Shown here: one piece after another, positions 48,382 to 58,519 of the stretch | How the letters are laid out: every line of letters begins with the position of its first letter | Position numbering within the stretch: the first letter of the stretch is position 1 | Assembly (NCBI GenBank): GCA_963804165.1 | Contig: CAWDPO010000043.1 | Span: forward strand, 160,001 to 224,000 | Reading direction: 5' to 3' | Length of the DNA: 64,000 nucleotides | Source of the DNA: an uncultured delta proteobacterium | Lineage (GTDB): Bacteria > Desulfobacterota > Binatia > UBA9968 | The notes under the pieces: model-generated | Database searches by the model: none | The model's input: only the letters and a program-made list of their open reading frames with translations | Told to the model about the DNA's origin: nothing | Position numbers and translations under genes: made by a program

Positions 48382-49065
48382 TCAAAACGCCGCGTTCGCG
48401 GCGCCGCGAAAATCAGACGGTTCCGGCTGCTGCTTCTTTCGCGCGCTGTTTCGAGCTTTTTGGTGATTCATGTCGGCCGGAATGAAGCGAACCTTTTTTC
48501 CTAACCGCTTTGCTGAGATGAGCTCATCCCGAGCCACTTCCCCGCCGCCGATACCGACGATGATGTCGCTGTTTTCGACCATGGCTTTGGAGGTCGGCGA
48601 TAATTCCTTGGTTCCGCCTACGAATCCGCCCCAAGTCGTGTCCTCCACGTAAAAAACGTGATCAACGAAAGGCGATAGCTTGACATTGTGCCCTCTTGCC
48701 TGAGACGACACGATTCCCGTCGTCATGAAGCCTTTCCGTTTCGCCATTTCATAGATCGCGCCGATGCCTTCCGGCGTAGCGCCGATGTTCACGATGGTTT
48801 TGGCCGGGTCAAATTCGCCGAGAATGACCTCCGCGTGTTTGCGCAGCAAAACGTCATCCTCGTATCCGGCGCCCGAATACCCGACAAAGGTAAGTACGGT
48901 TTTCCCTGTGCCTTTGAAGAACGCCTTGATGTCTTGTTTGACCGCATTTTTGACCGTGGCGGTGTGCGCCGGGCCAGCAGCAGCAAGAACGAAGAGACAC
49001 AGATACAGAGGGAAAAACGGCGTGCCGGAAAAACGCAATGATTGGCCGTGCTTTAATATCATCAA
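48382..49065 (-). CDS. Exported protein with SLOG (Smf/DprA/LOG)-like fold
   Basis: Signal-peptide-like N-terminus; TFVGYSG, IGATPEGIG, MVENSDIIVGIGGGEVARDEL..AKRLGKKV. Confidence 0.6.
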   Translation of the reverse strand: MMILKHGQSLRFSGTPFFPLYLCLFVLAAAGPAHTATVKNAVKQDIKAFFKGTGKTVLTFVGYSGAGYEDDVLLRKHAEVILGEFDPAKTIVNIGATPEGIGAIYEMAKRKGFMTTGIVSSQARGHNVKLSPFVDHVFYVEDTTWGGFVGGTKELSPTSKAMVENSDIIVGIGGGEVARDELISAKRLGKKVRFIPADMNHQKARNSARKKQQPEPSDFRGAANAAF

Positions 49066-49107
49066 GCGATCCCCTTCTATTCACGTTCTCGCACGAAAAG
49101 CTGTGTG

Positions 49108-49191
49108 GCCAAACGCCCCGCATCAGTGAACCACAGCACGCGATTGATAACGCAGGCGCGTGCCTAAGCACCAGGCGGAAGCACGTTGGGT
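49108..49191 (-). other. Degenerate attC-like site
   Basis: Minus strand reads ACCCAAC ... internal stem GCACGCG/CGCGTGC ... CTGATGCGGGGC-GTTTGGC, 84 bp, between two co-oriented ORFs. Confidence 0.3.
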
Positions 49192-49211
49192 CTCAGCCGC
49201 ATGAGATCGAC

Positions 49212-49637
49212 CTACTTCGACATCGGGCGCGATTCGACCGGGATGAGCGTTGTCTCTACTGGCTGCCCGGGATTGTTGCTTCTGATCTTGAACTCGCCCG
49301 CGCTCAATCGAAGTATTTCGGCCTTGTAGGAGAGACCCTCCTCGACCATCGTCAGCGCTCCACCCTCGTACTTCCAAGTCCCGAGCGTAGGCTTGGTATT
49401 AGGTGACGTGATGAGCAGCGTTCCCTCTGACAGGAATACATAAAGCGTGCCCGCCGCTACGCCGGACGAACTGCTCACTTGCCAGACCTTGTTGACGAAA
49501 CCGGCGGAAGCGCTACCGGCGTGGTCAAAATCCTGCTTTGCCGCGTCACCTTTATTGAGGCAAGCACCGAGACACAGAGCAAACGTAAAAATCAGGGTGG
49601 ACTTTGGAAATTTGATGTTGAGCCGCCTAGATTGCAC
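49212..49637 (-). CDS. Hypothetical lipoprotein (beta-rich, lipocalin-like)
   Basis: Lipobox LGAC; FVNKVWQV, YVFLSEGTLLI, GTWKY. Confidence 0.65.
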   Translation of the reverse strand: MQSRRLNIKFPKSTLIFTFALCLGACLNKGDAAKQDFDHAGSASAGFVNKVWQVSSSSGVAAGTLYVFLSEGTLLITSPNTKPTLGTWKYEGGALTMVEEGLSYKAEILRLSAGEFKIRSNNPGQPVETTLIPVESRPMSK

Positions 49638-49778: not shown

Positions 49779-50012
49779 CTAAAGACCTAGTAATTCCATT
49801 ATCTTGACTTGGTCGAAACCGACCACCGATTGGCCGTCGATGATCGTTACCGGCGTGCTTTGAAATCCTTGATCGAGTAATTCCTTTAATGCCGCTTTAT
49901 CCGCCCGTACATTTTTCTCCACGAACTGAACGCCTTTTTGAGATAGAAACTCCACCTCTTTATGACACGGGCCTCACCCAGGTTGGGTATAAACAACGAC
50001 CGATTTAGCCAT
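49779..50012 (-). CDS. Selenocysteine-containing glutaredoxin/NrdH-like protein (UxxC)
   Basis: Manual translation MAKSVVVYTQPG-U(TGA 49974-49976)-GPCHKEVEFLSQKGVQFVEKNVRADKAALKELLDQGFQSTPVTIIDGQSVVGFDQVKIMELLGL*; thioredoxin-fold TP and VGF motifs; RBS GAGGAG. Confidence 0.9.
49940..49958 (-). promoter_or_regulatory. Putative bacterial SECIS hairpin
   Basis: Minus strand GAGGTGGA-GTT-TCTATCTC begins 15 nt after the UGA; G-containing apical loop about 23 nt downstream. Confidence 0.7.
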
Positions 50013-50037
50013 TCTTTCTCTCCTCTAATTTTTTTAA

Positions 50038-50068: not shown

Positions 50069-50105
50069 GTGACGCGTTCCCAGTTTAAAACTGGGAACGC
50101 GTCAC
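50069..50105. repeat. Perfect 18-bp inverted repeat
   Basis: GTGACGCGTTCCCAGTTT-A-AAACTGGGAACGCGTCAC. Confidence 0.92.
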
Positions 50106-50220: not shown

Positions 50221-52080
50221 ATGCCGCATAGGGATCAATTCAAATTCAAGCTTAGATTTTTCCTCAGCGCTCTAACGCTTGGCCTGACGGTTTTCGCCGC
50301 TCTTTCAGGTTGGACCGATGAGCTGACCAACCGGGACTCGAGCGCGACCGAGGCGCTGGCGCGCCACGTGAAATTCCTATCCGCCGCTGAGCTTACCGGA
50401 CGGGGTGTCGATACTCCCGGGATCAAGCTCGCGAGAGACTATGTCGCCGCCGAATTCGCCAAATCCGGCTTGAAGCCGGGCGGCGATAACGGTAGCTTCC
50501 TGCAACCTTTCGATGTTGCCGTTGGCGTCACCGTAGTCGAGCCGACCAGCCTCACTCTTGGAACCGACGCTCCCCTCCAGCTAAACGAACAGTGGATTCC
50601 GCTTGGGCTATCGACATCCGACAAAATAGCGGCGGAGGTGGTTTTCGCCGGTTACGGGATCACGGCCAAGGACTACGGTTACGATGACTATGCGGGCATC
50701 GACGCCAAGGGCAAGATTATTTTAATGCTCCGCTACGAGCCGCCGCCTTCGGAGACTAAAAGCCCATTCAGAAAACTTCCCGACTATTCGACCCACGCGG
50801 CGCTGCGCAGCAAAGCCAATAACGCGCGGGATCATGGCGCGCTGGGCATGATCTTGGTCGATATGAGCGATTCGAGTCGTGAGAAACGTGAATTGATCTC
50901 GACGCAAAGTAGTTTATGGCGCGGCGGCAATCGCCTGACCGCCGCCCAGGTGAAGCGCCAGGTTATCGAAAAATGGCTCGCCGCCCGGGGAATTTCGCTT
51001 AGGTCGCTCAAAGAACAGATCGACACCAGCGGCAAACCCGCTTCAACGGCCATTCCCAACGCTATTGCCACCTTGCAAGTTAACTTGAGGGAAAATCGCC
51101 AGCACACAGACAATGTCGTCGGTATACTGCCCGGCGCGGATCCGACGCTGAGCGCCGAATCGATCGTCATCGGCGCCCACTATGATCACCTTGGATTGGG
51201 GCATTTTGGCGCGCGAGACTCGGCCTCGGAAGGGCAGGTTCATCCTGGCGCCGATGACAACGCGTCGGGAACCGCAGTGATTATCGACTTAGCCCGCCGC
51301 CTCAGCCTACTGGCGCACAAACCGGCCAGAACGATCGTATTCGTCGCATTCTCGGCCGAAGAGCTCGGTCTTTTCGGTTCGCGCCATTATGTCGATCATG
51401 CAGTGTCCATCTCGGCGATAAAGGCCATGATCAATTTGGATATGGTCGGACGCTTGCGCGACGACCGTGTAACCGTGTTTGGCACACGCTCAAGCACGGA
51501 TTTTAGCAAAACGGTGCTGGCCGGAGCTCAGCAATTGGGCCTCAAGATCGGCGAATCCGACGATGTCGGGCGCAGCGATCACATGTCCTTTTATAGCAAG
51601 AAAATTCCGGTGCTCCATTTCTTTACGGGCATCCACAATGACTATCACCGATCCACCGATACTTGGGAGAAACTTAACATCGACGGTATGGCAAAAGTCG
51701 GCGACCTTGTCATGCTGACTGCGTTGCAGATCGCCAATATTAAGGAACCGATCAATTTTGTCAGCCTGCCGGCACGCCCGCCGGCCGCGGGCGCCGCGGC
51801 GGGTCGAGGATTTCGCGTTTATCTCGGCACCATCCCTGACTACGGCGCACCGGCGGCGGGCGTACGACTTGCCGGAGTTTCCAGCGGCAGCCCGGCGGCG
51901 CTCGCCGGCTTGCAGGAAGGCGACGTAATCATTCGCTTGGCTGACAAAAAAATCGAAAATATCGAAGACCTGACTGGCGCTCTGAGCGACCGCAAAGCCG
52001 GCGACGAGGTCGAAATAGCGATTCTGCGCGCCGGTACGCCGCTCACGTTGAAAGCGACGTTGAAAAGTCGCGGTCAGTGA
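50221..52080 (+). CDS. M28 family aminopeptidase with PA and PDZ domains
   Basis: IGAHYDHLG, GADDNASG, FSAEELGL, NLDMVG, SDH, DYH; C-terminal YLGTIPDY...GSPAALAGLQEGD. Confidence 0.92.
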   Translation: MPHRDQFKFKLRFFLSALTLGLTVFAALSGWTDELTNRDSSATEALARHVKFLSAAELTGRGVDTPGIKLARDYVAAEFAKSGLKPGGDNGSFLQPFDVAVGVTVVEPTSLTLGTDAPLQLNEQWIPLGLSTSDKIAAEVVFAGYGITAKDYGYDDYAGIDAKGKIILMLRYEPPPSETKSPFRKLPDYSTHAALRSKANNARDHGALGMILVDMSDSSREKRELISTQSSLWRGGNRLTAAQVKRQVIEKWLAARGISLRSLKEQIDTSGKPASTAIPNAIATLQVNLRENRQHTDNVVGILPGADPTLSAESIVIGAHYDHLGLGHFGARDSASEGQVHPGADDNASGTAVIIDLARRLSLLAHKPARTIVFVAFSAEELGLFGSRHYVDHAVSISAIKAMINLDMVGRLRDDRVTVFGTRSSTDFSKTVLAGAQQLGLKIGESDDVGRSDHMSFYSKKIPVLHFFTGIHNDYHRSTDTWEKLNIDGMAKVGDLVMLTALQIANIKEPINFVSLPARPPAAGAAAGRGFRVYLGTIPDYGAPAAGVRLAGVSSGSPAALAGLQEGDVIIRLADKKIENIEDLTGALSDRKAGDEVEIAILRAGTPLTLKATLKSRGQ

Positions 52081-52218
52081 CTTTCCTTCTCGCTTCCGAG
52101 CTCCGAGATGTCTGTCCTGGTGAGTCCAACCCCCCGAAATTTAGAAATAATGCTCGCAGCTAATACGCTGTTATGTTAAGATAGCTGCAGTGGTGAAGGT
52201 TAAGGAGGACTGCTGTCG

Positions 52219-52827
52219 ATGATCAAGTTGTATACTTTCCCGCCCTCGACCAACTCTCGCAAAGTTCGCATTGCTCTCTTAGAGAAGGGGCTTGAGTTCC
52301 AGCGTATTAACGTCGATCTTTCCAAAAGGGAACAGAAAAATCCCGAATATCTCAAAATTCATCCGTTCGGACAAATCCCCGCATTGGACGATGAAGGATT
52401 CATCATTTACGATTCGACGGTGATTAACGAATATCTCGAAGACGAATATCCCTATCCTCCATTGATGCCAAAAGATTCGGAAGGACGGGCACGGGTGAGG
52501 CTGATGGAGGATTTTCGCGATACTCACTTCAATCTCTACTGCGTTCATCTGATCCAAGAAATGCGTAAGCCGGAAGGGGAACGCGACGCGCAGCGAATCG
52601 ACAACGCTAGAGCGGCGATCACGCAGGCATTTGACAGAATCGAAACCGAACTTAACGGCAACGAATACTTGGCCGGCTCGTTCAGCCTTGCTGATATTGC
52701 CTTCATGGCCAACCTCGAGCTGTTGGATCGATTCGCGATCCCGGTGGACCCCAACAAATTTGGAAAAACCGTCGCCTGGATTGCCCGGCTCAAGGCGCGA
52801 CCAAGCTTCGCCGCCTCCGCCACATAG
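52219..52827 (+). CDS. Glutathione S-transferase family protein
   Basis: STNSRKV, YLKIHPFGQIPAL, DSTVINEYL, FSLADIA. Confidence 0.92.
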   Translation: MIKLYTFPPSTNSRKVRIALLEKGLEFQRINVDLSKREQKNPEYLKIHPFGQIPALDDEGFIIYDSTVINEYLEDEYPYPPLMPKDSEGRARVRLMEDFRDTHFNLYCVHLIQEMRKPEGERDAQRIDNARAAITQAFDRIETELNGNEYLAGSFSLADIAFMANLELLDRFAIPVDPNKFGKTVAWIARLKARPSFAASAT

Positions 52828-52836
52828 ACCGGCCGG

Positions 52837-53550
52837 ATGTCCAGGAGTCTGATCCTCGCCTGGCTCGTCCACCTTTATACCGCCCTCGGCGTCATCGTCG
52901 GTTTCTTTAGCATCCTCGCCATTGAACAAGCGTCCTTCCGCGCTGCCTTTTTGTTGATGGCCTTCACGGTTGTGATCGACGCCACGGACGGCACATTGGC
53001 ACGCGCCGTCCACGTGAAGGAAGTGATCCCCTGGTTCGATGGCAACCTGCTCGACGCGATCGTCGACTATTTGAACTATGTCATTGCACCATGTTTTTTG
53101 CTGATCCACGCCCGTCTCTTGCCACCTGAAGACTCATTGTGGCTCGTTTCACTGCCGTTGCTCGCGAGTGCCTACGGCTTCTGCCAAAAAGACGCTAAAA
53201 CCAGCGACAATTTTTTTCTCGGCTTCCCGTCCTATTGGAATATCGTCGTCTTCTATTTCTATGTCTTGAAAACGCCCGTGTGGGTCAATGCCTTTGTAGT
53301 CATCGCGCTGTCAGTCTTAATTTTCGTTCCGATCAAGTTCATTTATCCAAGCAGGAGCCCGCGGTTTCGCGTACAGACAAATGTTTTAGGCGCGCTGTGG
53401 GGCGGCGCCGTCTTATATATGATCTACCGGCTGCCGCAGAGTGATCGGGTACTTGCGTTTGCCTCCTTGCTCTTTCCAGCTTACTATACGGCGCTATCGC
53501 TTTGGCTGGAGTATCGTCGCCTGACGAATCAAACATCGCTGCGAGGTTAA
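52837..53550 (+). CDS. pcs: Phosphatidylcholine synthase (CDP-alcohol phosphatidyltransferase)
   Basis: VHLYTALG, IDATDGTLAR, DGNLLDAIVDYLNYV, KTSDNFFLGFPSYWN, PIKFIYPSR. Confidence 0.82.
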   Translation: MSRSLILAWLVHLYTALGVIVGFFSILAIEQASFRAAFLLMAFTVVIDATDGTLARAVHVKEVIPWFDGNLLDAIVDYLNYVIAPCFLLIHARLLPPEDSLWLVSLPLLASAYGFCQKDAKTSDNFFLGFPSYWNIVVFYFYVLKTPVWVNAFVVIALSVLIFVPIKFIYPSRSPRFRVQTNVLGALWGGAVLYMIYRLPQSDRVLAFASLLFPAYYTALSLWLEYRRLTNQTSLRG

Positions 53551-55238: not shown

Positions 55239-56348
55239 TCAACTCGGGTTTAGGGCAGTCATCAGCTCAACCACGTGGATAGCGGCCGGGCTGACTGATG
55301 CTACAACGTCGTCTCCTTCGCGTAAACATAGGGCCGCGAAACGAGACTCGCTCGCCAGCGCCGTCACATAACCACATTCTGCCTGTATCATAATTCGATA
55401 GCGTGCCGTCGATGGCGAAATTCTCCGTACCTTTCCTCTGATGCAGATATTTTCCTTGGCGCATGTCCGGTCGCCAAAGTCGCGATCAATATCGAGGTTC
55501 TCCGGGCGAATACAGAGGATCACCGGCGCGCCACTCCTAAAATCGCCCGACACGGTTGCGATTCCGCCTTGAAACCGCACCGAGATCTTTTGACCAAGAC
55601 TTGCGTCAACGATTCCAGGGATTCTCGTTTCCATGCCAACCATGATCGCGACTTCTTCGTTCGCAGGATGAGTAAAAATCTCCCGCTGTGGCGCGCATTG
55701 TATTAACTTGCCACGACTCAAAACGCCGATCCGTTTGGCCAGCGCCGCCGCCTCATGAAGTTCGTGAGTCACCATGATGGCGGTGATGCCGGTTTGCGCC
55801 AAAATGTCCCGCAAATCCGCTAGGAGAGTCTCGCGGGTGGGAGCATCAAGCGCGGAGAAAGGCTCATCCAAGAGGAGCACCTCCGGATCCAGGACAAATC
55901 CGCGGGCCAAACTAGTCCGCTGCGCCTCGCCGCCCGAAAGTGTGCGAACTTGGCGTCCGGCTAAATGGGCGATGCCGAGTCGCTCAACCCAAGGCCACAG
56001 TTTTTTGTCGATTTGATCACGACTCAATCCGCGGAGCTTCAAGCCGAGGGCGGCGTTCTCGTAAACCGTCGCATTCAACAGCAGAGGCTCCTGAAACACA
56101 CTCGCCATTCGGCGACGTAGCGCTAGAGAGTTTTGCGACGTCGCCCGTTCGCCGCGAAAGTATACGCTTCCGGAAGTCGGCCATTGGAGCAAGCCCATCA
56201 CTCGCAGGAGAGTGGACTTGCCGGCTCCATTGTCGCCGATGACCGCGACGACTTCACCGGCGTGGACATCGAAAAACGAAAGATCGAGAGCCGTAGCGGC
56301 TCCATATTGAACGCAGATATCCCGTAACTCTAGGAGAGTCTCGGCCAT
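55239..56348 (-). CDS. tupC: Tungstate ABC transporter ATP-binding protein with TOBE domain
   Basis: GDNGAGKS, LSGGEAQR, LLDEPFS; same operon as tupAB. Confidence 0.85.
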   Translation of the reverse strand: MAETLLELRDICVQYGAATALDLSFFDVHAGEVVAVIGDNGAGKSTLLRVMGLLQWPTSGSVYFRGERATSQNSLALRRRMASVFQEPLLLNATVYENAALGLKLRGLSRDQIDKKLWPWVERLGIAHLAGRQVRTLSGGEAQRTSLARGFVLDPEVLLLDEPFSALDAPTRETLLADLRDILAQTGITAIMVTHELHEAAALAKRIGVLSRGKLIQCAPQREIFTHPANEEVAIMVGMETRIPGIVDASLGQKISVRFQGGIATVSGDFRSGAPVILCIRPENLDIDRDFGDRTCAKENICIRGKVRRISPSTARYRIMIQAECGYVTALASESRFAALCLREGDDVVASVSPAAIHVVELMTALNPS

Positions 56349-57043
56349 TTGACTCGGTCGTGCTGCTGGATGAGAGTCAGAAAAAAATTCAGCGCAAAAC
56401 AGAGAATGAGAAGAATCAATCCCAATGCGATGGCGATCTCAAAATTACCCTTGCCGGTTTCCAGCACCGTCGCGGTCGTTAGAACCCGGGTTTGTCCGCG
56501 AATATTGCCGCCGACCATCATCGATGCTCCCACCTCGGAGATGACGCCGCCGAACCCCGCCATGACGGCCGCCAGCAGCGGCAATCGCGCTTCTTTGCAA
56601 AGAAGCCAGAGCACCTGGCGCTTCGAAGCGCCGATGCCGAGCAATTGCAGCGCCAGATTCGGATCGAGGCTTTGAAAGCTCGCCATCGTCAGCCCGACCA
56701 CGATCGGAAATGCGATGACGACCTGGGCGATGATCATTGCGCTCGGAGTGTAAACGAGTTCGAGAAAACCCAACGGTCCGCTGCGCCAAAGCAGGATCGA
56801 GATAAAAAGGCCGACAACAACGGGCGGCAGCCCCATACCGGTGTTGACCAGCGCCACAGCGATCGACCGTCCCGGGAAACGGCTGAGCGCGAGCGCAATG
56901 CCCAAAGGTATTCCGAGCAGAAGAGAAATGAATGTCGCGCTGCCGGAGATTTTAATCGACAGCCAGGTGATGGACCAAACCTCGGTATCACCGCTAAATA
57001 CGAGCTCGATAGCCTTGGCCATCCCTTGCCAGATCAGCTCCAC
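56330..57043 (-). CDS. tupB: Tungstate ABC transporter permease
   Basis: NTGMGLPPVVVGL, GPLG, SEVGASMMVGGNIRGQTRVLTTA. Confidence 0.9.
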   Translation of the reverse strand: MELIWQGMAKAIELVFSGDTEVWSITWLSIKISGSATFISLLLGIPLGIALALSRFPGRSIAVALVNTGMGLPPVVVGLFISILLWRSGPLGFLELVYTPSAMIIAQVVIAFPIVVGLTMASFQSLDPNLALQLLGIGASKRQVLWLLCKEARLPLLAAVMAGFGGVISEVGASMMVGGNIRGQTRVLTTATVLETGKGNFEIAIALGLILLILCFALNFFLTLIQQHDRVKWPRLS

Positions 57044-57045
57044 GG

Positions 57046-57903
57046 TTAAACTCCCAGCTCCTCCTCGCGCTTGCCCGCGACGGGCACGAACAAAGATTGA
57101 CCAAACTTTTCCGCTCCGAAAGTCTTAATCGCCGCCTGCGTTTGCGGCGAGACCATGAAATCTGCCAACGCCTTGCCGCCGGCGGCATTGACTCTCGAGC
57201 CGCTGGCGGGATTGACCTCGAGAACAGAGTAGATATTCAGCAGCGCTTTGTCTCCCTCCACCAGGATCGGCAGTACAACTCGCTTTCCGAGGGCCAGGTA
57301 TGTGCCGCGGTCGGTGATCGTGTAAGCATTCCGCTCGTTGGCGATGCCAAGCGTCGCGCCCATGCCCTGACCGGACTCGATGTACCAATCGCCCTTCGGT
57401 TCGATGCCCGCCTCTTTCCACAACGATTTCTCGAGATTGTGTGTGCCGGAATTGTCGCCGCGGGAGACAAAGCGGGATTTTGACTGCTCAATCAACTTCA
57501 GAGCCGCAAGCGCCGTCTTCGCCGACTTGATTTTCGCGGGATCATCTTTCGGACCGATGATCACAAAATCGTTGTACATGACGAGCCGGCGGTTGAGCAA
57601 CTTTCCTTCGCTGACGTATTGCTTTTCCAGGCTGGGCGCGTGGACTAGGGCCACATCCGCATCCCCCTTTGCCGCCAGCGCAAGCGCCTGGCCCGTTCCC
57701 ACCGAAACGGTCTTGACGATGTAGCCGGTTTGTTTTTCGAAAAGCGGGATCAAAACATCCAATAAACCGGAATCCTGTGTGCTCGTCGTGGTCGATAAAA
57801 TTATATTTCGACTTTTGGGTTCGGCGCCGGAAACGAGCTTCAAAGCGAGAACAAAGGTCAAAGCCGGCGCCAGACCGAAGATCAAAATGTTACGCGTTCG
57901 CAT
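57046..57903 (-). CDS. tupA: Tungstate ABC transporter substrate-binding protein
   Basis: TTTSTQDSGLLD, VGTGQAL, VHAP, MYNDF, SRGDNSGTH. Confidence 0.92.
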   Translation of the reverse strand: MRTRNILIFGLAPALTFVLALKLVSGAEPKSRNIILSTTTSTQDSGLLDVLIPLFEKQTGYIVKTVSVGTGQALALAAKGDADVALVHAPSLEKQYVSEGKLLNRRLVMYNDFVIIGPKDDPAKIKSAKTALAALKLIEQSKSRFVSRGDNSGTHNLEKSLWKEAGIEPKGDWYIESGQGMGATLGIANERNAYTITDRGTYLALGKRVVLPILVEGDKALLNIYSVLEVNPASGSRVNAAGGKALADFMVSPQTQAAIKTFGAEKFGQSLFVPVAGKREEELGV

Positions 57904-57955
57904 GACTCCTCCCTCAATATGGCTTTCATCTGACGATGAGGCGGTGCTTTTTTGC

Positions 57956-57984
57956 AGCCTATTTCCTCCGCAGACAAGCGTCAA
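57956..57984 (-). promoter_or_regulatory. Sigma-70-type promoter for tupABC
   Basis: Minus strand TTGACG-17 nt-TAGGCT. Confidence 0.5.
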
Positions 57985-58519
57985 GTTCCTAACCAACATA
58001 AGTGGCAGTACTCGCCAACGACAATGGCGTGAGTTAGCAAAGCAACTTCAGAATTGATCGCTTATTCATTGCTCCCTCATCTAAACAGGTCAGCGCACGG
58101 CGCGACGTCGTTCGCGGAATTGCTTGAGGGCCCGCTTCGACGTGCGCGCATATTGGGATCGGAAGAGCGTCGGATTCTTCGACCCGCGATGGGTCGCCGC
58201 GTGCCCGGCTGTCTATTACTTTACGGCGGTACTGAGAACCATCAAATAGTTTGACCGACTCGCGCTGGGACCTTACAATCAGATAAATAACGACCGAATA
58301 GCACCGATCTACTCTGTACCGAGACGACCACAAAGCGCCGACGGTTTGTAATCCCTGGGTCTTCACACGCGATTGGACGCTGGCTTCAAGGTAATTGCAT
58401 CCTATGCAGCGCATGACGCGTCGCCAACGAGCGAAAATGAAAATTGCCGTTGCTGCTTTTGCAATAGGCCCGCACCACTATGACCGAACCAAATCTCGGG
58501 ATGTGACGGAGCCCACCTA

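Follow-up and report, generated by a model that had tools for sequence, protein, structure and literature searches.

The window analysed here, a stretch of 64,000 nucleotides from the genome of an uncultured soil bacterium of the lineage Candidatus Binatia, carries on its minus strand a short gene for a glutaredoxin (Grx) whose reading frame is interrupted by a single UGA, and the present work is concerned with the question of whether this codon specifies selenocysteine (Sec, U). The coding sequence (CDS; 49779..50012, minus strand) comprises 77 codons followed by a TAG stop (49781-49779), directly 3' of which stands a second stop codon, TGA. Its first codon is an ATG (50012-50010), and a Shine-Dalgarno (SD) sequence, GAGGAG, is seen directly in the sequence on the same strand 7 nt upstream of this start (50020..50025). 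The in-frame UGA is codon 13 (49974..49976, minus strand), the proposed Sec codon at position 1 of a U-G-P-C redox motif. When TGA is read as U, translation yields 77 residues with the segment ...YTQPG-U-GPC-H..., and 64 open codons follow the UGA up to a C-terminus ...ELLGL-stop that shows neither a second TGA nor a Sec three residues before the stop.

Under genetic code table 11 only an open reading frame (ORF) of 58 amino acids is listed at this place, starting with a GTG at 49955 (49779..49955, minus strand) and devoid of the redox motif, so that the Grx gene is missed or shortened. A preliminary description of this DNA, made from its letters alone, had proposed a gene absent from the ORF track, equipped with promoter, ribosome binding site and ATG and open for 64 codons behind a TGA. 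The description gave no strand. The omission by the gene caller, the GAGGAG and ATG and the open frame are all found as described, and all of them lie on the minus strand; the promoter is not found, as a consensus scan of the upstream region on the minus strand called no sigma-70-like site, and a sigma-70 promoter 5' of the Grx gene was rejected on this ground. At the equivalent place in orthologues, purine-rich GGAG-like motifs are present as judged by eye, in an uncounted number of cases.

Forty genomes related to that of the window were searched in six frames, which provided 35 orthologues, the window's own included. One of these, L035, belongs to a genome marked unpublished (G005), and no conclusion rests on it. 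Two further sets were read at the DNA level, namely the best 80 of 158 relatives from a contig scan with one genome per species and the best 80 of 240 relatives from a metagenome contig scan seeded with P0012, a relative in the Cys form; weaker relatives were left out of this reading. The pooled set amounts to 194 sequences with 150 distinct coding sequences of 225 nt, drawn from sets that overlap in part and were chosen by similarity, and 87 distinct sequences were used in the analysis of codon use and of the minimum free energy (MFE) of the 46 nt behind the UGA.

Orthologues with exactly one in-frame TGA occur within the genus itself and in two other families of the order, and in 35 of the 35 order-level orthologues this TGA is codon 13, in the context ...QPG-U-[GP]PC.... 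U-G-P-C is the form of the motif in genus g1 as well as in family f2, and family f3 has U-P-P-C. Codon 13 is likewise TGA in all 79 readable loci of the genome scan (best 80 of 158), the 80th being masked by N, and in 80 of 80 loci of the metagenome scan (best 80 of 240), despite the Cys-form query. The codon is retained in each of the 150 distinct coding sequences, down to approximately 60% protein identity, and Cys-form DNA did not occur among the best 80 of 158 genome or the best 80 of 240 metagenome relatives. The record titles of the genome loci mostly name 'Candidatus Binatia' or 'Deltaproteobacteria' metagenome-assembled genomes, and the most distant TGA-bearing loci, at about 60% identity, are titled Methylomirabilota/NC10. 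Although probable indel errors do exist elsewhere in the assembly, an erroneous TGA in place of TGC or TGT would have to be a substitution, not an indel, and the same TGA stands in 194 sequences and in every independent assembly read; the probability of a sequencing or assembly error is practically negligible.

The codons around the UGA behave as coding sequence. Residues Q, P and G at codons 10-12 are kept in 98% of the 87 sequences while two to four synonymous codons are in use for each of them, and Cys16 is invariant with both Cys codons employed. The maintenance of these residues amid synonymous variation argues for purifying selection on the protein on both sides of the UGA, and the segment 5' of the UGA is, as judged from this pattern, translated. 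This bears directly on the alternative that the UGA acts as a true stop, in which case the product would be the 58-residue ORF from the GTG at 49955, or the locus would be a pseudogene. Such a reading agrees with table 11, which calls exactly this ORF, and with the public gene calls, which do likewise in 101 of the 120 listed relatives, but it leaves unaccounted for that codons 14-18 and the 12 codons ahead of the TGA vary synonymously while the protein sequence they specify is conserved, and that an SD sequence and an ATG precede codon 1 whereas the GTG merely has an AAAGAG abutting it. The 58-residue form would furthermore be deprived of the entire active site, which is retained in 127 of 150 homologues, and in a pseudogene one TGA in an otherwise intact frame would not be expected in 150 distinct sequences down to 60% identity. 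We consider a true stop or a pseudogene highly improbable.

The active site of these homologues became apparent from protein databases, which also document how the gene has been called so far. A collection of 5.8 billion proteins was represented by the 120 closest clusters listed, and an exhaustive HMMER search of 1.84 billion cluster representatives by its best 150 hits, which were sorted by the residue at the Sec position. Among the 120 clusters, 101 are N-terminally shortened forms of 58-64 residues that cover 75% of the query, and 19 are full length; the forms in the collection are mostly called as 58-residue 'glutaredoxin 3'. The 19 full-length models hold W (14), Cys (2), R (1), G (1) and L (1) at position 13, W being the residue that gene calls with table 4 yield for TGA. 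The close Cys forms are P0012 (78% identity) and P0014 (75% identity). In the best 150 distant representatives, the aligned residue is Cys in 127 cases, 121 of these with a CxxC motif; the remainder have W (3), R (1) or S (2), start just after the site (16) or show an internal alignment only (1). The UGA thus occupies the position of the attacking Cys of the family, where the preliminary description had placed it within a CxxC motif, and the proposed alignment of TGA with Cys in homologues is found both in the distant representatives and in P0012 and P0014. The three full-length models with R, G or L in place of Sec are P0004, P0005 and P0009; each of these residues can be reached from TGA by a single base change, and the models may be real variants or read errors.

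With U written as C, the protein matches the Pfam family Glutaredoxin (PF00462) over residues 5-63 with 47.8 bits against a cut-off of 22.9. The best NCBIfam match is the YruB family (TIGR02196) with 69.5 bits, below its cut-off of 88.55, and NrdH-redoxin (TIGR02194) likewise stays below its cut-off (49.9 versus 85.75 bits). Known NrdH structures superimpose on the predicted model with a TM-score of about 0.83, and no ribonucleotide-reductase genes are adjacent to the Grx gene in the window. Of the initial assignment as glutaredoxin/NrdH-like, the glutaredoxin part is therefore retained, and the NrdH part is reduced to a resemblance with NrdH and YruB scores below their cut-offs. The AlphaFold2 model, calculated from an alignment of 14 sequences with a mean pLDDT of 91.8, describes a small thioredoxin-fold redoxin with the topology beta-alpha-beta-alpha-beta-beta-alpha, its elements being E5-9, H14-25, E31-34, H39-47, E55-58, E61-64 and H68-75, helix 1 beginning with the U/C-x-x-C motif. 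In its x-x residues, which are G-P or, in one family, P-P, the site resembles the thioredoxin type more than the C-P-Y-C of classical glutaredoxins.

In both sequence and fold, the best match in the PDB is entry 7c10, 'dithiol cGrx1', with 52% identity, an E-value of 2.8e-19 over residues 1-77, a TM-score of 0.94-0.96 and an rmsd of 0.8 Å. This glutaredoxin of Clostridium (Alkaliphilus) oremlandii OhILAs (7c10, 7c12, 7c13) has the same fold and belongs to the same length class of about 77 residues, but its host is a Firmicute, whereas the present gene resides in an uncultured soil lineage, and its motif is U-P-H-C as opposed to U-G-P-C in the window or U-P-P-C in family f3. The structural study describes native cGrx1 as a selenoprotein with a U(or C)PXC motif, whose Sec was replaced by Cys for crystallization, and U13 of the window protein aligns to the first Cys of the crystallized C-P-H-C, which is Sec in native cGrx1 (PMC7642778). 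The same study proposes cGrx1 as the reductant of a selenoprotein MsrA, the oxidized redoxin being reduced by glutathione (PMC7642778). The sole MsrA match in the genome studied here contains no TGA, so that the 'tandem Sec' pairing of Grx and MsrA in C. oremlandii is not mirrored, and a selenoprotein MsrA was rejected as a partner. The second-best match, BC3987 of Bacillus cereus (8.7 kDa; 3zij/3zit), shows 43-44% identity and TM-scores of 0.87-0.92. It is described as a small thioredoxin-like protein with a C-P-P-C site and a conserved Thr8 (PMC3720550); its x-x residues P-P are those of the U-P-P-C of family f3, but it has Cys, not Sec, and its Thr8 may correspond to T9 of the window protein.

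Selenoprotein glutaredoxins as such are not without precedent, and Kim et al. 2011 is reportedly the primary paper on them. A survey of 2026 lists 'Glutaredoxin (Grx), PF00462, UxxC' among the experimentally supported prokaryotic selenoproteins (PMC13188914), and a census of 2006 gives a Grx selenoprotein for Geobacter sulfurreducens, Moorella and Alkaliphilus (PMC1794560). The window protein shares with this listed family PF00462 and the proposed Sec at position 1 of UxxC. The UXX-star families (NF041212, NF041114) also comprise small glutaredoxin-like selenoproteins, but the window protein has no second Sec near the stop and scores 44.8 bits for NF041212, short of the cut-off of 66. In the full-text literature we found no paper that pairs Binatia or Binatota with selenocysteine or selenoprotein; the main text of the BSepDB paper contains no Binat*, Methylomirabil* or Grx, while the supplements of BSepDB and deep-Sep may list the clade.

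Behind the UGA, codons 19-25 (E-V-E-F-L-S-Q) harbor a hairpin that resembles a bacterial Sec insertion sequence (SECIS), GAGGUGGA-GUU-UCUAUCUC (49940..49958, minus strand). It is built from an 8-bp stem, in which 49958-49951 pair with 49947-49940, and a G-U-U loop at 49950-49948. The stem begins 15 nt and the loop 23 nt 3' of the UGA, which agrees with the earlier description of a hairpin with a G-led loop at about 23 nt. According to the survey, a bacterial SECIS element has a loop of 3-9 nt, a stem of 4-16 bp, a distance of 16-37 nt between UGA and loop and an MFE of at most -7.5 kcal/mol; the first two positions of the loop contain a G, as a rule with G or U behind it (PMC13188914). The present hairpin, with a loop of 3 nt starting with G-U, 8 bp and 23 nt, lies within the constraints quoted there (PMC13188914). 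A stretch of 81 nt folds with -22.9 kcal/mol as compared to -16.7 ± 2.6 for shuffled sequences (z -2.39; 3 of 200 shuffles as stable), and the 46 nt that follow the UGA have an MFE of -9.0 to -17.6, at or below -7.5 kcal/mol in 87 of 87 sequences.

RNAalifold predicted exactly the same 8-bp helix from the 35 orthologues. The cells of this helix pair in 99.6% of cases, a value that falls to 40-70% when, throughout the whole named structure, the 3' partners are displaced by one to three columns. The hairpin, like the TGA, is kept throughout the 150 distinct sequences, with all eight pairs in 145 and seven in the remaining five; the loop is GTT in 128 and GTA in 22. One two-sided change separates these sequences, as Val20 GUR goes together with Leu23 CUA in 102 and Lys20 AAR with Leu23 CUU in 48, with no discordant case, the change at Leu23 being synonymous. 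In the 87 sequences of the codon analysis, codons 19 and 21 are GAG in 87 of 87, while the other Glu codons of the gene are GAG in 55-71%. Phe22 is TTT in 94%, whereas the invariant Phe30 and Phe66 favor TTC (71-80%); two of the six codons are in use for Leu23 as against five to six at other Leu positions; Ser24 is TCT in 86 of 87; and Gln25 is CAA in 94% where other Gln positions favor CAG. The codons flanking 19-25 vary freely on both sides, and this limitation of synonymous freezing to codons 19-25 points to an RNA-level constraint that coincides exactly with the hairpin. Judged from the alignments, the synonymous-site pattern is stronger evidence for the hairpin than is the covariation.

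The genome of the window (7.5 Mb, 46 contigs, 81% complete) encodes the machinery for Sec incorporation that the preliminary description had considered necessary. The genes selA (610 bits), selB (357 bits) and selD (385 bits) are located side by side on contig C16, all above their cut-offs, and a tRNA-Sec is present, with 76 bits in Rfam and a tRNA-SeC with anticodon tca in ARAGORN. The selD gene (C16:139949-140875, minus strand, 384.7 bits) contains one in-frame TGA, as expected of a Sec form. In line with the selenoproteome suggested for this organism, UGA also occurs in genes for SelD, FdhA, a UXX-star protein and three GrdB-like proteins. Formate dehydrogenase alpha (FdhA; C35:23018-26293, plus strand) scores 1008.9 bits with its frame neighbors and has one TGA. 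The UXX-star glutaredoxin-like gene (C10:254632-254856, plus strand; L144:1489-1713) reaches 111.6 bits for NF041114 against a cut-off of 72 and contains two TGA, in a redox motif ...KDL-U-PYT... and in ...GGS-U-EV-stop, three residues before the stop. In each of the three GrdB-like genes (C45:202998-204035, C11:52540-53586 and C11:85349-86404, all on the plus strand; PF07355, 379-442 bits) the PF07355 domain is immediately succeeded by a TGA, set in a T-[SA]-T-U-G-T context, and then by 83-94 further open codons. On the whole, at least seven UGA-bearing genes of the genome are otherwise intact, and selA, gshB, trxB and most of the other genes searched show no internal TGA.

Many relatives possess in addition a glutaredoxin-like domain with one TGA in frames of 258-299 residues, examples being G004:C6:335179-335394 and G019:C48:101831-102040. 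This extra domain may be a fused Sec redoxin of the HUGP/GUXX-star type; it was not found in the window's own genome with the Grx query.

The distribution of TGA over the genome also bears on the possibility that the UGA is recoded to a residue other than Sec, either to Cys through a Sec-like tRNA and SelB or to Trp or Gly in a deviant code. Some bacteria have been described as recoding a UGA of the Sec type to Cys, which lends this reading a degree of plausibility, as does the W at the site in 14 of the 19 full-length models, although W is what table-4 calls yield. The genome, however, is not one in which TGA is a general sense codon, for the TGAs found fall in SelD, FdhA, UXX-star and GrdB, and the survey lists these families as selenoproteins (PMC13188914). 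SelA and SelD, needed only for the synthesis of Sec, are present, and the chemistry of a CxxC motif would be lost with Trp or Gly in the attacking position. Recoding to a residue other than Sec is consequently very unlikely.

Several observations weigh against assigning the gene as that of a selenoprotein. A look-up of sequencing runs for the stretch listed no RNA run, and the contig sets listed contain it at a small share. On a midpoint-rooted tree calculated with the hairpin codons left out, the covariation in the hairpin comes down to only about two evolutionary events, so that it is real but thin and constitutes weak independent evidence, and as the sequences are related, the shuffle control of hairpin pairing overstates the support. 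The bare 19-nt hairpin, with -7.0 to -7.3 kcal/mol, falls slightly short of the model value of -7.5, and the register of a lower SECIS stem is not conserved; a candidate for such a stem (columns 10-13 with 44-47) was rejected, three of its four pairs being invariant through Pro/Gly codons and the fourth unpaired in 10 of 32 sequences. Finally, selB (C16:140942-142891, minus strand, corresponding to L001:664-2613) is split over three frames in the assembly, which reflects either assembly indel errors or a broken gene. Its pieces comprise 424 residues, then 219 (SelB-wing_2) and then 92 (SelB-wing_3), and follow frames 1, 0 and 1, with the GTPase, domain II and the beta-barrel in frame one, wing_2 shifted and wing_3 back.

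If selB were indeed inactivated, the family might be a genuine selenoprotein that is not produced in the present organism, a scenario that takes its support from the occurrence of the SelB domains over three frames on C16. The assembly itself, however, contains other genes in pieces, namely a TrxR-like gene on C11 (three) and MsrA on C1 (two), and on C10 a GrdB-like gene is likewise fragmented. This pattern suggests assembly indels for selB as well. The two selB frameshifts moreover cancel each other, and the UGA genes counted above, at least seven, have remained otherwise intact. In the relatives, SelB is a single open frame of 637-697 residues with a full-length match in 33 of 40 genomes; it exceeds the cut-off in 35 of 40 (36 of 41 with G000), and the five without it are 60-93% complete. 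A loss of Sec insertion through a frameshifted selB thus appears very unlikely.

The Grx gene is flanked by divergent genes for an M28 peptidase (PA and PDZ domains), a glutathione S-transferase (GST) and a CDP-alcohol phosphatidyltransferase-like protein (window 50221-53550, plus strand). The GST mentioned in the preliminary description is a real gene (52219-52827, plus strand). Among 80 orthologous loci, the divergent neighbors include M28 in 40 and GST in 39, and GST adjoins Grx directly in some loci and lies beyond the M28 gene in others. Of the 37 loci in which a short-chain dehydrogenase/reductase (SDR) gene was matched, about 33 have it downstream in convergent orientation. This synteny of GST and SDR is a weak functional hint, as it is seen within one lineage. 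Between the Grx and SDR genes lie two ORFs of 141 residues, with a lipoprotein-like N-terminus, and 227 residues (window 48382-49637, minus strand), for which no Pfam or NCBIfam match was obtained. They are present in only 1 of the 80 orthologous loci (L072), and the pair accordingly looks to have been inserted recently into a gene order that is otherwise conserved.

At 57 nt 5' of the ATG (window 50069-50105) lies an inverted repeat of 16 perfect base pairs and a 5-nt loop, which is followed by TTTT when read on the minus strand. Within the genome it is unique, and otherwise it occurs only at the locus of the nearest relative (L123), where a two-sided change keeps the pairing. Placed between the divergent genes, the repeat may be an operator or a hairpin of the terminator type; its role as a conserved regulatory part was rejected, since it is confined to this genome and L123. 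Further away, three genes (window 55239-57999, minus strand) encode a binding protein, a permease and a TOBE-domain ATPase of an ABC importer. The tungstate importer proposed earlier for this place is reflected in the best NCBIfam matches, TupA (225.5 bits), TupB (166) and WtpC (228.9), but all of these remain below the curated cut-offs. By these similarities an importer of the tungstate/molybdate oxyanion type is plausible, and it would fit the FdhA encoded elsewhere in the genome.

From what is directly observed, that is the anatomy of the gene, the conservation of UGA and hairpin, the pairing of Sec with Cys, the fold and the Sec genes of the genome, we assign the gene, with a probability of about 0.9, as that of a selenoprotein, a 77-residue thiol/selenol-disulfide oxidoreductase of glutaredoxin fold in which UGA would encode Sec. 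The insertion of Sec, the contact of SelB with the hairpin, the substrate and the reductant are inferred. By analogy to the established bacterial mechanism, a ribosome arriving at the UGA of codon 13 would encounter SelB-GTP with Sec-tRNA(Sec), held by the hairpin that begins 15 nt downstream, and Sec would be put in at the UGA in place of termination. In the folded protein, Sec13 would lie exposed at the N-terminus of helix 1 and serve as the nucleophile that attacks a disulfide or sulfenic acid of the substrate. Cys16 would then resolve the intermediate to yield an intramolecular selenenylsulfide, which a cellular reductant would subsequently reduce. Both gshB (389.5 bits) and trxB (410.3 bits) are encoded in the genome, and together with the GST neighbor they do not decide between the reductants.

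The kind of protein is already known and experimentally grounded, the closest solved structure being itself a Sec-glutaredoxin, and our understanding of how selenoproteins work is unchanged by this gene. New are the lineage, uncultured Binatia with Methylomirabilota relatives, and the near-fixation of Sec in the clade, along with the scale of the misannotation and the compact and almost invariant hairpin. A systematic annotation error is corrected in that a 58-residue fragment, or a protein with Trp in its active site, becomes a full Sec glutaredoxin. These uncultured Binatia and their Methylomirabilota relatives have a working-looking Sec system with several selenoproteins, which in the genome of the window are SelD, FdhA, three GrdB-like proteins, UXX-star and Grx.

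The hairpin would represent a clean case of natural dual coding, with an RNA signal placed inside seven codons. A more far-reaching view, which we regard as doubtful but put forward tentatively, is that of a clade-wide, essentially Sec-fixed glutaredoxin of soil Binatia and Methylomirabilota with an unusually minimal SECIS, consisting of a perfect 8-bp stem and a G-U-W triloop within seven codons, with no bulge in the predicted fold. Such a minimal hairpin, near-invariant in its nucleotides across two phyla, fixes the peptide E-[V/K]-E-[F/Y]-L-S-Q. If it is true that SelB reads a triloop of this kind, the element would form a distinct SECIS class and a compact, portable tag for Sec insertion, and the almost complete lack of Cys forms would speak for a functional need for Sec in this family, beyond mere tolerance.

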